Origin: Vulcanimicrobiota bacterium | Lineage (GTDB): Bacteria > Vulcanimicrobiota > Vulcanimicrobiia > Vulcanimicrobiales > Vulcanimicrobiaceae | NCBI GenBank assembly: GCA_003135555.1 | Contig: PLCF01000079.1 | Location: 1 to 55,506 of the forward strand | DNA: 55,506 bases | Direction of reading: 5' to 3' | In this document: piece after piece, positions 12,918 to 17,063 of the stretch | How positions within the stretch are numbered: position 1 is the first letter of the stretch | Layout: every line of letters begins with the position of its first letter | The notes under the pieces: model-generated | Databases searched by the model: none | What the model was told of the DNA's origin: nothing | The model's input: only the letters and a program-made list of their open reading frames with translations | Program-made: the position numbers and the translations under genes

Positions 12918-13370
12918 TCAGGGCAGCGTGGTTTCCATGATCGGTTGGTTCGAGGGTGTGACGACCCGCACGGGATAGCCGCGCCGGTAGAGGGAGTTCG
13001 GAGCGATCCAGAGCGTGTAGGTGCGGTACGGCCGCGTCGGCTGGCCGCCGTCGAGGGGTTGCTCTTCGAAGAGCACGATGTGCGTTCGGTCCAGCGTGGG
13101 GCTGAGATGCTCCTGAATCTGGCGGTAGCCGGTCTGCGTGTGCGGGCCGAGCAACAGCACGACGGCGAACTCGTTGCGGAAGTGGACGGGTGCCTTGATG
13201 CCGAGCCGGTCGAGCGTTGCGGTATCACGCACGACGACGAGCTCTTTGCCGCTGCCTAGCACCGTCGTCGTTCCGCGCTGCAGCGCCTGGACGCGCAATT
13301 CACGACAGCCGGACAGAACGAGCAGCGCGCCGAGCAGGCATGCCCACCGCGTGCTGGTCGCCGGTCTCAC
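12918..13370 (-). CDS. Lipoprotein, PrcB C-terminal-like domain
   Basis: GTG overlapping upstream TGA; lipobox LSGC; VVLLLGPHTQTGY motif. Confidence 0.6.
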   Translation of the reverse strand: MRPATSTRWACLLGALLVLSGCRELRVQALQRGTTTVLGSGKELVVVRDTATLDRLGIKAPVHFRNEFAVVLLLGPHTQTGYRQIQEHLSPTLDRTHIVLFEEQPLDGGQPTRPYRTYTLWIAPNSLYRRGYPVRVVTPSNQPIMETTLP

Positions 13371-14860
13371 CTCTGCTGCCGCGCTGCAAGCAACTCGCGC
13401 AGCCGCGGTTTTTCTACTTTGCCCATCGCGTTGCGGGGAAGCGCGTCGATCGGGTAGAGGTGCTTGGGGACCTTGAAGCTCGCCAGCCGTTCGCGCAGCG
13501 TGTCGAGCGCCTGTTCCGCGTCGAACTGCTCGTCGGTCTCGACGAACGCGACGGGGATCTCGCCGCGCGCGGCGTCCGGCTGTCCGACCACCGCCGCCGC
13601 GCGAATCCCCGGGATACGCAGCAGCTCGTCCTCGACCTCGATCGGGTAGATGTTGAAGCCGCCGCTGATCACCAGCTCTTTGAGGCGGCCGTTGATGACG
13701 TAACCGCGCTGCGGATCGAACGTCGCGAGGTCGCCGCTCTTGTACCAGCGCCGGCCTTGCGCGTCGTGCGCGAACGCCGCCGCGGTCGCGGCGTCGTTGC
13801 GCCAATAGCCTTCGAACACGTTGGGCCCATGGACGAGGATCTCGCCCGCCATGCCCGGCGCGATGTCTTGGTTCGTGACCGGATCGGCGAGCCGCACCTC
13901 GACGTGCGGGAGCGGAAACCCGACCGTTCCGGCGTGACGCGGAGCGTCGTAGCGATTGCTCAGCGCAAAACCGAACTCGGTCGAGCCGTAGCGTTCGAGG
14001 ATCGAGACGCCGAAGCGCCGGCCGAACTCCTCGTGCACGCTCGCCGGCAGCGCGGCCGAGCCCGAGACGAACAGCCGCACACCGTCGAAGCGCACGCCGT
14101 CGCGGGCCTGCTCGAGGATGCGCACGTACATCGTGGGCACCCCGAAGAACATCGTCGCCTCACCGGTCGCCAGCGCCGCGACGACCGAAGGCGCGTCGAA
14201 GCGCTCGCGCAGCAGCACGCGCGCGCCGGCGACGAGCGTGCCATTCAACCCCGCGCCGAGCCCGTGTACGTGGAAGAGCGGGAGCGTCAGCAGCAGCGTG
14301 TCGCTCGCGGTCCAGTGCCACGCTTCGACCAGCGCGCTCGCGATCGCGGCCAGGTTACCGTGGGTGAGCAGCGCGCCCTTGCTGCGGCCGGTCGTGCCGC
14401 TGGTGTAGATCAGGATCGCGCCGTCACCGGCGTCGATCGCGGGCGGATCGGCTGGCGGTGCGATCGACGCGTCGTGCGCCCACGCTTCGATGTCGGCGAG
14501 GTCGAGAACCGTGCGCCCGTCCTGCGGCGACACGTACTGCGCGCTCTGCGCGGAGACGCACACCACCGATGGCGTCGCGTCGCTCAGGATGTGTTCGAGG
14601 TCGGAGGTGCGGTACAGCACGTTGACGGTCACGACGATCGCGCCGGCGCGCAAGCCGCCCAGGTACGCGTAGATGAAACCGGGCCGGTTCTCGGCATAGA
14701 TCGCGAGCCGGTCGCCGGGGCGCAGCCCTTTTTCGCGCAGCTTAGCTGCGACGCGCAGCGACGCGTCACGCAGCGCTGCATACGAAATATCGTCGAGGGC
14801 GAGCGCCATGGGTCTTTCGGCAGCGTGGGCGTCGAGCGACTCGAGCATGGAGCCCGTCAT
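13367..14860 (-). CDS. Acyl-CoA synthetase (MatB/malonyl-CoA synthetase-like)
   Basis: YTSGTTGRSKG, LPLFHVHGL, ERYGSTE, SGD, NAMGKV motifs. Confidence 0.88.
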   Translation of the reverse strand: MTGSMLESLDAHAAERPMALALDDISYAALRDASLRVAAKLREKGLRPGDRLAIYAENRPGFIYAYLGGLRAGAIVVTVNVLYRTSDLEHILSDATPSVVCVSAQSAQYVSPQDGRTVLDLADIEAWAHDASIAPPADPPAIDAGDGAILIYTSGTTGRSKGALLTHGNLAAIASALVEAWHWTASDTLLLTLPLFHVHGLGAGLNGTLVAGARVLLRERFDAPSVVAALATGEATMFFGVPTMYVRILEQARDGVRFDGVRLFVSGSAALPASVHEEFGRRFGVSILERYGSTEFGFALSNRYDAPRHAGTVGFPLPHVEVRLADPVTNQDIAPGMAGEILVHGPNVFEGYWRNDAATAAAFAHDAQGRRWYKSGDLATFDPQRGYVINGRLKELVISGGFNIYPIEVEDELLRIPGIRAAAVVGQPDAARGEIPVAFVETDEQFDAEQALDTLRERLASFKVPKHLYPIDALPRNAMGKVEKPRLRELLAARQQR

Positions 14861-15060
14861 CCCGCGATGAGCGCCAGCTCAAGGCGCGAGGATGGCGGCG
14901 GTTCTTCGACGGCGGGCCCACGTGCGATTCGACCATTAGGCACGGGACCGAGCAGTCGCGCAGCGGAGCGCAGCGCGTGGCTCGTCGGGGCCGTCCATGA
15001 ACTGTGGTGAGCGTTAGTGCCCGGTGATGCCATGACGTTGGCACAGCGTCGCGGGACGAT
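14861..15060 (-). ncRNA. Candidate structured RNA homologous to the tnpB 3'-end (omegaRNA-like)
   Basis: Ungapped inverted similarity to 16231-16311 including exact CACCGGGCACT; several hairpins. Confidence 0.4.
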
Positions 15061-15066
15061 GCCGTC

Positions 15067-16305
15067 GTGGCATCGCGCTTCGACGGTCAGCTCCGGTGGC
15101 TGCACAAAGTCCGGCTCTATCCGACCTGCGCGCAGGAACGCGCGCTCGTCACGATGCTGCGCGTCACGCGCGAGCTCTACAACGCATTGCTTATGCAGCG
15201 CCGAGACGCCTGGACGACTCGTCGCACTGGGCTCTCCAGCCGCGACCAATACGCGCAACTCACCGAGCTGCGTGAGGCCGAGCCGCGTTTCGCTAGCGTC
15301 TTTCGCGAATGCGAGGACGCGGTGCTGCACCGGTTGGACCTCGCCTTTGCGGCGTTCTTCCGGCGGCTCAAACGCGGCGAGACTCCGGGGTATCCGCGCT
15401 TCAAGCCCGCGGCCCGCTGGAATCAGCTCGAGTTTCCGCACGGCGACCGCGCGCTCAAGCTCGATATTGTGCAAGGGCGGGTGCGGATACCGGGTGCAGG
15501 TGCAGTGCGGCTGCGCAAGGGCCGGACGGTGCCCGAGTTCGGGCGCGCCTTCTTGGTGACCAAGAACGGCCGCTGGTACGCGGTGTTCGAGGCTCACCGT
15601 CGCCCATCGCCTTTGCCGGCGAGCGGGTGCAGCGTTGGGATCGACCGTGGCATCCGGGTGCTCGCCGCGCTCTCCGACGGCAGCACCATTGAGAACGTAA
15701 GGCCCGGTTCCCGCCGCCGCGCCGTGGTCGCACGACACCAGCGCGCGCTCGACGCGGCGACGCGCAAAGACGCCGCAGGTCGCCTGCTCAACCGGCACGA
15801 TCGCGCTCGAATGGCGACGGCCCGGCGTCTCGCTCGCGCCAAAGAGCGCGAGGCCAACGCGCGGCGCGAATGGCTGCATCAGGTCAGCCGCGAGATCGTG
15901 TTGCGGTTCGATCGCATCGCCCTGGAGGCACTGAACCTCCGCGGGATGACCCGCAGCGCCAAGGGCACGATCGAGAAGCCCGGGACGAACGTGGCGCAAA
16001 AGACGGGGCTGAACCGCTCTCTCCTCGACGCCGGGTTCGGGATGCTGGCGACACTGATCCGCGAAAAAGCAGAGTACGCTGCTCGCACGGTGGTCGACGT
16101 TGACGCCAGATACAGTTCGCAGACGTGTGCCGCGTGCGAGCACGTCTGCAAGGAAAGTCGGGAGGGACCACGCTTTGCCTGCGTTCGCTGCGGCCATGCG
16201 GCCGACGCGGACGTGAATGCGGCTCAAGTCATCCTCCTGCGGGCGGAGTCGCCGCCCATGAGAGCACCGGGCACTGCTCGGGGCAGGCAGCACGATGCGG
16301 CCTGA
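15067..16305 (+). mobile_element. tnpB: RNA-guided endonuclease TnpB (IS200/IS605 family), no tnpA nearby
   Basis: N-terminal HTH (KVRLYPT, RELYNALL), GYPRFK, RuvC GIDRG / IALEAL / DADVNAA, zinc finger CAAC..CVRC. Confidence 0.93.
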
Positions 16306-16325
16306 CCAAGCTCACGACGAATCGC

Positions 16326-17063
16326 TTATGCGCCGAGACGGTCCGCCAGCTCACCGAGGTCGCGCACGGCGAGGTCGAACTCGGGCATGGCCAGCGGATT
16401 GTTCGACTGCGTAGGGCCGTGTTCGTGCGGCCGCGCGATGAACCCCGTGCGCAGCCCCGTGGACGCCGCCGCTTTGAGGTCGCCGGGGTGGGCGGCGACG
16501 AGCATCACGCGCTCCGGCACCGTTGCGAGCAGCGCGACGGCGCCGCGATAGACTTCCGGGTCGGGCTTGTAGTGCCCGAAGAGTTCCGCCGAAAAGATGA
16601 CGTCCATCGGCAGCGGCGCACCCTTGGCGAGGTCGGTCAGCAGCCGCACGCCGCCGTTCGAGAGCGTGCCCAGAATGTAGCGCGTGCGCAGTCGCATCAG
16701 CCCGGCGACGGTGTCCGGCCACGGCCGCAGCCGGTGCCAGCGGTCGACGCACCAGCGGCGCGCGTTCTCGTCGAGCCCGCCGGCGATGTCGAACTGATCG
16801 GCGAGCGCGTCGAACGACTCCCGATGCAGCGCGTCGAGCGAGGTCCAGGGCCGCTCGCCGCGTCGCACGCGGTCCATCGAAGGCACGTACATGCCGCGCC
16901 AGAGGTCGACCAAGGCCGGCCAGTCGGCGGCCAGCCCGCGCTCCCGGCCGAACGCCGTCAGGTCCTCGATCAAGCTGCTGCGCCAGTCGACGAGCGTCCC
17001 GAAGACGTCGAAGAGCAGCGCCTCGACGCCGCCGCTCGCTACGTCAGGTATTTCTGGAACCAG
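16326..17063 (-). CDS. Haloacid dehalogenase type II (HAD)
   Basis: LFDVFGTLVDW, LSNG, YKPDP, VAAH motifs; nucleophile motif lies upstream of first canonical start (16973), so start is uncertain (CTG 17063 or ATA 17051). Confidence 0.85.
   Translation of the reverse strand: MVPEIPDVASGGVEALLFDVFGTLVDWRSSLIEDLTAFGRERGLAADWPALVDLWRGMYVPSMDRVRRGERPWTSLDALHRESFDALADQFDIAGGLDENARRWCVDRWHRLRPWPDTVAGLMRLRTRYILGTLSNGGVRLLTDLAKGAPLPMDVIFSAELFGHYKPDPEVYRGAVALLATVPERVMLVAAHPGDLKAAASTGLRTGFIARPHEHGPTQSNNPLAMPEFDLAVRDLGELADRLGA

Follow-up and report, generated by a model that had tools for sequence, protein, structure and literature searches.

What does the leader of a TnpB gene do when parts of it resemble, in inverted orientation, the guide-RNA scaffold at the other end of the same transposon? 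The question is raised by contig PLCF01000079.1 of a Vulcanimicrobiota bacterium (assembly GCA_003135555.1), of which the whole stretch analysed, 55,506 nucleotides (nt), is called the window here. At about 14866-16320 it holds a tnpB-only transposon of the insertion sequence (IS) type IS200/IS605 (TnpB-omegaRNA, IS1341-like) that is otherwise ordinary. An interpretation made from the letters alone (the sequence-only reading) had taken the stretch upstream of tnpB for an inverted, in-register second copy of the omegaRNA module that overlaps the 3' end of the gene, and had offered three explanations: a second outward-reading omegaRNA giving a second guide, a 5' leader that pairs with the scaffold in the manner of a trans-activating CRISPR RNA (tracrRNA), or the orphan end of an older inverted element. 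We find that the tnpB 5' leader carries three collinear antiparallel segments, H1 to H3, which are complementary to the element's own scaffold, lie on the same strand as the scaffold and are conserved in relatives. Pairing between leader and scaffold more likely tunes expression than supplies a second guide.

The three segments are located in the left end (LE) of the element, 2-60 nt upstream of the tnpB start codon, and their partners are in the right end (RE), in and beside the stem-loops S1 and S2 and the pseudoknot of the scaffold:

14866 to 15066, plus strand: left end, 201 nt, taken as the tnpB 5' leader from paralog homology and the divergence of other copies.
15007 to 15014, plus strand: H1, LE strand, GTGAGCGT, pairs with 16308-16315.
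16308 to 16315, plus strand: H1, RE strand, which is the guide-adjacent 3' strand of the pseudoknot, pairs with 15007-15014.
15015 to 15026, plus strand: H2, LE strand, an 11-mer plus one nucleotide, pairs with 16265-16276 in 12 bp, 11 of them Watson-Crick.
16265 to 16276, plus strand: H2, RE strand; 16265-16266 are the last base of the pseudoknot 5' strand and a linker base, 16267-16271 the S2 5' strand and 16272-16276 the S2 loop.
15049 to 15065, plus strand: H3, LE strand, with the Shine-Dalgarno-like GGGA(G)GA; ends 2 nt before the GTG and pairs with 16226-16242.
16226 to 16242, plus strand: H3, RE strand, with CCTCC, just 5' of S1 and inside the tnpB coding tail.
15028 to 15043, plus strand: LE hairpin A, TGCCA-N6-TGGCA, present in all lineages examined and 91.9% paired in 35 copies.
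14914 to 14949, plus strand: LE hairpin GGGCCCACGTGC ... GCACGGGACC, from RNAalifold, its pairing kept despite changes.

Relatives were oriented for comparison (53 from family genomes and, from metagenomes, 14 full-length ones), and base pairs were counted in an alignment of 35 distinct copies, A1, from which L047 (LE split by a group II intron), the pseudogene L066, L080 and three exact duplicates were left out. H1 is paired in 92.1% and H2 in 90.6% of cases, on a par with the scaffold's own stems (S1 and S2 100%, S3 90.4%, pseudoknot 79%). The H1-H3 set as a whole is 79.7% paired, compared with 30.7-42.6% when the partners are slid by one to three columns, and its covariation score of 0.194 (0.043-0.074 slid) was reached by none of 500 shuffles. 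Four pairs of H2 are changed on both sides, as in column 112:1414, which is UA in 17 copies, GC in 11 and CG in 2; the co-varying columns 1413-1416 correspond to nucleotides of the S2 loop. H3 is paired at 14 of 17 positions in the window copy and at all 17 in L076, with at least 13 of 17 in 13 of the 15 copies of the window lineage, and the G070 lineage has a version of different sequence with 11 bp, all Watson-Crick. Such compensatory changes between lineages are a stronger argument than the shuffle figures. LE identity in close pairs is 0.81-0.91 against 0.65-0.69 at third codon positions, and by this measure LE is under constraint, that is, purifying selection.

Helix lists, column counts and co-folding were used in these comparisons in place of RNAduplex-type folding of long LE and RE pieces, which was too permissive, allowing huge internal loops and giving the window lineage a z of only -0.5 to -2. 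Because LE aligns poorly between lineages, RNAalifold over 24 mixed-lineage LEs returned a weak consensus (-9.75 kcal/mol) of which only the hairpins were used; in the hairpin at 14914-14949, columns 98-100:117-119 show changes on both sides that keep the pairing in 3-4 sequences each. The whole-element alignment of a second group, A4, was unusable for column counts, H1 being out of register between its sub-lineages.

Does the complementarity persist in more distant relatives? In lineages at 53-65% protein identity the H1 sequences differ and yet match their own partners, the LE/RE pairs being GTGTGTGCC/GGCACACAC, GTGAATGCC/GGCATTCAC, ATGAATGCC/GGCATTCAT, GTCTGCGCC/GGCGCAGAC and GAATGCGCTC/GGGCGCATTC. 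Scored with a 9-nt probe (an 11-nt probe demanding at least 10 pairs was too strict) over the 47 of 53 copies that have enough upstream sequence, the best match of LE is its own RE type in 11 of the 17 RE segment types. The mean H1 score is 7.79/9 for the own type against 6.69/9 for the others, a value that no permutation among 20000 reaches. H2-like helices of 8-15 bp are found in distant lineages, again on the S2 5' strand and loop, and in one lineage a 34-nt helix includes the Shine-Dalgarno sequence (L053, genome G028, flagged unpublished; this copy also enters the H1 matching, the helix lists and the start-codon and co-fold results). Two paralogs in the window genome, L003 and L004 (contigs 7 and 53, 68-69% identity), are without H2 and show H1-like matches immediately upstream of their start codons; in L004, GTGTGTCA pairs with TGACACGC, fitting the altered RE of that copy.

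What, then, becomes of the inverted copy? The ungapped alignment exists as it had been described: the minus strand from 15060 runs along the plus strand from 16231, paired positions sum to 31291, 36 of 81 letters are identical, the named blocks are there, and so is the exact 11-mer at 15016-15026 and 16265-16275. As an 81-nt copy, however, it does not stand, since at least 36 of 81 identities are obtained in 91% of 300 dinucleotide-preserving LE shuffles (either orientation; 71% in inverted orientation alone), and the real LE scores higher in direct orientation (39/81) than inverted (36/81). The 11-mer is mildly unusual, being reached by 4.3% of LE shuffles (2.3% inverted only), and a repeat search found several other exact 10-11-mers within the same 1.8 kb. 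Taken as a single sequence, in which only the 11-mer is out of the ordinary (2-4% of shuffles) and whose GC-rich DNA yields many 10-11-mers, the locus could be read as a chance similarity or as what decay has left of an older inverted element. The orphan end proposed earlier is contradicted by the comparison: homologous positions are conserved, and every lineage examined shows compensatory changes. With LE under purifying selection, we give chance or decay only a very small likelihood.

Of the hairpins, GGGCGG-AGTCG-CCGCCC does exist in RE and is conserved, all 35 copies being fully paired there, and the further LE hairpin at 14914-14949, with its compensatory changes, is real as well. The LE counterpart that had been matched with the RE hairpin, GACG-N9-CGTC, is not the conserved one, which is TGCCA-N6-TGGCA at 15028-15043; LE and RE hairpins are not homologous, so the compensatory change that had been suspected between them is not supported. 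The blocks of H2 and H3, on the diagonal, and that of H1, off it, are all selected complementarities. H2 and H3 share one diagonal only because hairpin A (15028-15043) equals S1 plus linker in length.

A second, outward-reading omegaRNA in LE that would give a second guide has the 36/81 inverted alignment with its exact 11-mer in its favor. We built a covariance model of the scaffold, R1, with 97 positions, from 58 distinct right ends (alignment A3). On 16230-16320 its score is 97.3 bits (E 5.8e-25). On the minus strand of LE at 14982-15061 it reaches 3.9 bits (E 1.7; rank 16 among 27 background hits), a background score by which LE is not a second omegaRNA module. No counterpart of S3, of the CACGATG loop or of the terminal AACGA(A) motif was found in LE, and a BLAST search of RE against the whole genome gave 40 matches at E<=10 with LE absent among them. 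Moreover, the LE block at 15007-15065 is placed 140-200 nt inside the left boundary (about 14866), so that a guide derived from the flank is impossible, and the differences between LE and reverse-complemented RE are biased to wobbles, as in pairing rather than homology. The headline of the sequence-only reading, a dual-guide or split-guide system, is therefore not supported, and we see almost no chance that LE encodes a second omegaRNA.

By its sequence, RE overlaps the 3' end of tnpB and forms a canonical omegaRNA scaffold, with three stem-loops and a pseudoknot, the form described as universal for omegaRNAs in the available part of 10.1101/2023.11.20.567912:

16241 to 16257, plus strand: stem-loop S1, 100% paired in 35 copies.
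16260 to 16265, plus strand: pseudoknot 5' strand, the S1-S2 linker, pairs with 16310-16315, 79% paired in 35 copies.
16267 to 16281, plus strand: stem-loop S2, 100% paired in 35 copies.
16284 to 16304, plus strand: stem-loop S3 with loop ACGAT, 90.4% paired, two pairs changed on both sides.
16316 to 16320, plus strand: terminal motif GACGA, kept in all copies; the element ends at 16320/16321.
16321 to 16341, plus strand: predicted guide region, placed by the known TnpB-omegaRNA layout and overlapping the 3' end of the HAD gene.

The order S1, linker, S2, S3, an 8-9-nt segment (16308-16315) and terminal GACGA is constant across copies. Inspection of the RE alignment by eye, with the changes uncounted, suggests that the pseudoknot strands change together between lineages. 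S3 is probably also the RE hairpin recognised by a transposase. H1 takes the 3' strand of the pseudoknot and H2 takes the 5' strand of S2, so leader pairing and the working scaffold fold are mutually exclusive. This decides how much of the second earlier proposal survives: pairing of a 5' leader with the scaffold is supported in silico, and its tracr-like role as part of a working guide is not, because the pairing replaces S2 and the pseudoknot.

Could the leader be a partner in maturation or structure all the same? In such a scheme a double-strand RNase would define the omegaRNA 5' end by cleaving the H3 and H2 duplexes, or the TnpB complex would retain the leader. H3, 17 bp long in L076, does end exactly at the foot of S1, where the omegaRNA 5' end is expected, and the leader pairs with the guide-adjacent strand as an anti-repeat pairs with a repeat. 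However, the scaffold already folds completely into three stem-loops with a pseudoknot partner of its own, and the leader would remove S2 and the pseudoknot; in a characterised IStron TnpB system, substituting nucleotides in one or the other half of the pseudoknot disrupts cleavage of DNA, as stated in the accessible portion of PMC13521648. For ISDra2 TnpB, moreover, processing of its own mRNA is reported that needs no partner of this kind (PMC10278001, in the part of that text available). We regard a tracr-like maturation or structural role as quite unlikely.

Which molecule would pair? Among the non-Watson-Crick cells G-U exceeds A-C by 27 to 6 in H2 and by 35 to 12 in H3 of the window lineage, with 56 to 15 in local RNA stems, while the cells of H1 are too few to judge (4 to 8). 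H1 and H2 are adjacent in LE and 31 nt apart in RE, with S3 between them. This bias and this spacing imply that the plus strand itself pairs, and not that a double-stranded inverted-repeat site is bound by a protein; they fit RNA and single-stranded top-strand DNA alike. RNA is favored over DNA by the proximity to the start codon and by the constraint on LE. In every lineage, with start codons assigned, the LE segments are found at most about 75 nt upstream of the start, and the 3'-most helix, in most of those examined, directly adjoins or overlaps the Shine-Dalgarno sequence or the start codon. In the window lineage H3 spans -18 to -2, with GGGA(G)GA opposite CCTCC. In one genome, G014, no helix at the Shine-Dalgarno sequence or start was found.

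The DNA alternative proposes that LE and RE of the top strand pair as single strands during replication-coupled 'peel and paste' transposition, which would either juxtapose the ends for a Y1 transposase or obstruct the region where RE is cleaved. The tnpB sense strand carries the flank that resembles a transposon-associated motif (TAM), DNA tolerates G-T wobble, LE and RE have direct-orientation loops, A(G/C)GATG and ACGATG, as expected for transposase sites, and the element has clearly moved, with many near-identical copies in one genome and an existing empty site. Yet the LE segments, 140-200 nt from the left boundary, always lie beside the start codon, which a DNA role would not need, and the stretch from the RE hairpin to the cleavage site would be masked by H1. 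Besides, no Y1 transposase (PF01797) was found in four of the five genomes searched (completeness 84-97%), namely the window genome (84% complete) and three of four other carriers, in a search that did not take in IS607-type serine TnpA. The sole match, in G014, is located within a different IS of the IS605 type. Pairing as single-stranded DNA thus appears unlikely to us.

Predicted stability was assessed by co-folding the last 80 nt of the leader plus 6 nt of the gene with the last 100 nt of RE. The gain over separate folding is 16.6-27.1 kcal/mol in nine of eleven lineages, against 5.5-11.7 for mononucleotide-shuffled LEs, and is a net overestimate because the fold ignores the pseudoknot. 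The two weak lineages are those of L062 (14.5) and L067 (8.6). For the window copy the gain is 17.4, compared with 9.6 +/- 3.3 for shuffled LEs, none of 40 reaching 17.4. Most printed dimers retain S1, S3 and hairpin A alongside the H helices.

The reading we prefer is that leader and scaffold act on each other as RNA. Since the leader strand includes or abuts the ribosome site, the pairing is read as an RNA toggle or feedback. Leader and scaffold would pair either inside the full-length tnpB transcript or between tnpB mRNA and free omegaRNA, probably beginning at the S2 loop. The duplex would hide the tnpB ribosome-binding region and would undo the S2 and pseudoknot that the nuclease requires. 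Each RNA molecule would be a translated message or a guide, a leader-bound scaffold being no guide and a scaffold-bound leader remaining untranslated, and a rise in omegaRNA or in copy number would dampen TnpB output. From the comparisons above we infer that both strands are RNA, that the two come together and that regulation is the outcome, and we hold such a self-regulatory toggle, masking the ribosome site and unfolding the scaffold, to be about equally likely to be right or wrong. The co-varying S2 loop suggests, by analogy, loop-initiated antisense recognition as in classical IS antisense control. It is possible, though we lean against it, that the scaffold has a second function, its S2 loop and pseudoknot strand making it an antisense regulator of the tnpB leader, whether in cis or between copies, with guide folding and nuclease translation coupled by a lineage-specific, co-evolving 'kissing' code. 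Such coupling would give a TnpB transposon a self-limiting circuit of its own and might be a step on the way to split guide RNAs.

Several points weigh against the RNA toggle. No RNA run holding the locus was found, and a promoter scan of 14700-16500 found no sigma-70-like promoter. The sense strand is also the single-stranded DNA strand for an IS200/IS605 transposase, so the same pairing, with G-T wobble tolerated, could act in DNA. H1 and H2 in the window lineage are 41-60 nt before the start, and only H3 touches the ribosome site; over all 35 copies H3 is 69-70% paired, and since its RE strand is protein-coding (I-L-L, CCTCC), part of the Shine-Dalgarno fit could be coincidence. In the window copy, H1 is weakened to 7/9 by a C>A change in RE, and of the close lineages it is the one whose co-fold gain stands out least from the shuffles. 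Because the sequences compared share ancestry, their independence is overstated by the shuffle and permutation figures. Within one genome, most combinations of copies form 9-11 of 11 pairs, and with such cross-compatibility action in cis cannot be told from action in trans, which is possible. Finally, a long-range intramolecular pairing must compete with fast local folding and with translating ribosomes, and omegaRNA bound by TnpB may not be free to pair.

Competition of this kind between a leader and a guide RNA has a precedent in IStrons, and the likeness raises one more alternative: LE and RE could be the halves of an unrecognised self-splicing ribozyme with H1-H3 as its long-range helices. 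LE is a conserved, hairpin-rich region of 200 nt, and the available portions of 10.1101/2023.11.20.567912 and PMC13521648 describe an LE-encoded IStron ribozyme that contacts RE nucleotides overlapping the pseudoknot. On the other side, no Rfam family, group I intron included, matches LE, RE or the whole element at E<=10, a model that may miss divergent introns; the element terminus is CGA(A) and not G; and the window copy is antisense to its host operon, so splicing could not heal the host transcript. We consider a hidden ribozyme highly improbable.

With IStrons (group I intron, TnpA and TnpB; C. botulinum, C. difficile) the window element shares the competition of an LE-encoded RNA with the omegaRNA fold for RE nucleotides, the pseudoknot 3' strand among them, and a transcript that is one thing or the other, which makes them the closest in logic as far as the accessible text of the same two sources goes (10.1101/2023.11.20.567912, PMC13521648). 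It differs from them in having no group I intron signature or terminal G and an LE of only 201 nt. The interaction consists of plain antisense helices of 8-17 bp and not of a ribozyme active site, and the other partner is the tnpB ribosome-binding region. Compared with OMEGA elements of the ISDra2/IS608 type, it has likewise an intact TnpB (RuvC D-E-D, zinc finger), a scaffold overlapping the tnpB 3' end and RE, a short conserved motif 5' of LE, no visible duplication and multiple copies; unlike them, it is without tnpA and possesses a structured 201-nt LE with three scaffold-complementary segments.

Antisense control of transposons offers another comparison. In the multicopy inhibition of IS10 by RNA-IN and RNA-OUT, an RNA pairs with the 5' end and ribosome site of the mRNA, starting at the loop of a stem-loop. 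In IS200, a 5'UTR (untranslated region) structure and the art200 antisense RNA hold down expression (PMC4513863, in the part of the source at hand). The window scaffold would be a candidate regulator of this sort: its sequence shows the complementarity to the tnpB leader and the co-varying loop nucleotides. However, the IS10 and IS200 RNAs are cis-encoded, being transcribed from the opposite strand of the same DNA, whereas the partner here is on the same strand, 1.2 kb downstream. Because it is that far away and is itself the guide RNA, the complementarity must be upheld by compensatory change. A further comparison is with tracrRNA:crRNA (CRISPR RNA) anti-repeat pairing and the 'RNA splitting' in the origin of type V CRISPR. 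There too the part of a guide RNA next to the guide is paired by an RNA segment located elsewhere, but pairing by the window leader, a putative RNA partner, would replace essential scaffold elements instead of forming them. In the main texts that the full-text literature search covered (supplements and subscription-only papers were outside its scope), no description of leader-omegaRNA pairing outside IStrons was found.

The nuclease gene and the flank of the element are in keeping with a TnpB transposon:

14861 to 14865, plus strand: TAM-like 5' flank CCCGC, directly before LE.
15067 to 16305, plus strand: tnpB, 412 aa, intact, GTG start; assigned by Pfam, NCBIfam, motifs and a PDB match.

The protein carries the Pfam domains HTH_OrfB_IS605, OrfB_IS605 and Cas12f1-like_TNB, scores 215.5 bits against NCBIfam guided_TnpB (cut-off 100) and matches the ISDra2 TnpB chains 8bf8/8exa/8h1j of PDB at E 7e-21. 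The motifs GIDRG, ALEALN and ADADVNAA and two CxxC pairs show that the RuvC D-E-D triad and the zinc finger are present.

Upstream of the element is an acyl-CoA ligase gene (AMP-binding; 13367-14860, minus strand) and downstream a HAD hydrolase gene (16326-16973, minus strand). The insertion point is in the short spacer from the HAD stop codon (16326-16328, minus) to the ligase start codon (14858-14860, minus), and the element is antisense to both genes. It has probably split a two-gene host operon (HAD and ligase), in which case the ligase would depend on a new promoter or on read-through. The element ends, which the sequence-only reading had left to an empty-site comparison, are defined by one at about 14866 and 16320/16321. 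In a related strain the HAD/ligase spacer is 15 nt, and contigs from peat runs X4 and X5 link 14867 to 16322, omitting 1454 bases, with 4 other letters between. The evidence is one 847-nt record per run, and the related strain differs by 20 letters on one side and by 60 on the other. It confirms the ends, and the 4 extra letters make the exact junction only approximate. Contigs of other copies leave the alignment at 14862 and 16320-16322, and upstream flanks of other copies diverge just 5' of GATGAGCG at 14866 (about 14862-14866). The 206-nt intergenic stretch belongs wholly to the element, with an 81% match to the contig-17 paralog over query 3-202. At the other end the terminus ...CACGACGA(A) at 16320/16321, ending CGA(A), is kept in all copies, and the sequence 3' of RE is different in every copy. 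No target duplication is visible at the insertion. CC occurs at -4/-3 before LE in 26 of 29 usable insertion sites, in a TAM-like pattern WCCNY; six rows were excluded from this count (four misplaced anchors and two duplicates). We also tried to read insertion orientation from open frames across reconstructed empty sites and rejected the result (15 plus, 16 minus), which is uninformative in GC-rich DNA and mislabels the window locus.

The window genome has four tnpB copies (protein identity 100, 86, 69 and 68%), and relatives at E<=1e-60 occur in 32 of 201 family genomes, frequently in several copies. The related loci sit in records titled as Vulcanimicrobiota, WPS-2 or Eremiobacterota metagenome-assembled genomes from peat, one set being labelled 'uncultured Alphaproteobacteria'. 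With no cognate TnpA in the element or found in the genome, mobilisation would have to occur in trans. G014 holds some 20 near-identical copies with 75-76% identity to the window TnpB (loci L081-L088 and L099-L123, genome-contig matches included), a number that points to a recent burst. In another copy of that genome, L047 (2849-4168, locus minus strand), a group II intron interrupts LE at the 3' arm of hairpin A; its open reading frame has RVT_1 (E 2.8e-37) and GIIM maturase (E 5.3e-17) domains, and hairpin A may be the stem-loop target of this intron. A loop motif is common to the 5' region of LE (14880-14900) and to S3 (16284-16304) in direct orientation, A(G/C)GATG and ACGATG, and in the G197 loci L051, L092 and L093 the two stretches are identical by eye at 10 of 13 positions. 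The hairpins of the LE 5' loop and of S3 may be transposase-binding hairpins. Across the scaffold, at 16214-16300, summed contig depth in four peat runs is 4-15 times that of the flanks; many related copies in these communities share the stretch at >=90% identity, and the excess is not an expression measure. In runs X4 and X5, contigs also link 15464 to 15624, omitting 159 bases (53 codons) of tnpB, with short sides of 30-35 letters, and this junction may be a deletion variant or a paralog chimera.

TnpB elements are the ancestors of Cas12 and are under development as compact genome editors, and the balance between the nuclease and its guide is only now being worked out, as in the Arc repressors and in the intron-versus-guide conflict of IStrons. 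If the pairing described here is what we propose, it would be a new and purely RNA-based layer of control in which a guide RNA also regulates its own nuclease. In heterologous use, keeping or omitting the native leader could then alter the output of both TnpB and omegaRNA.

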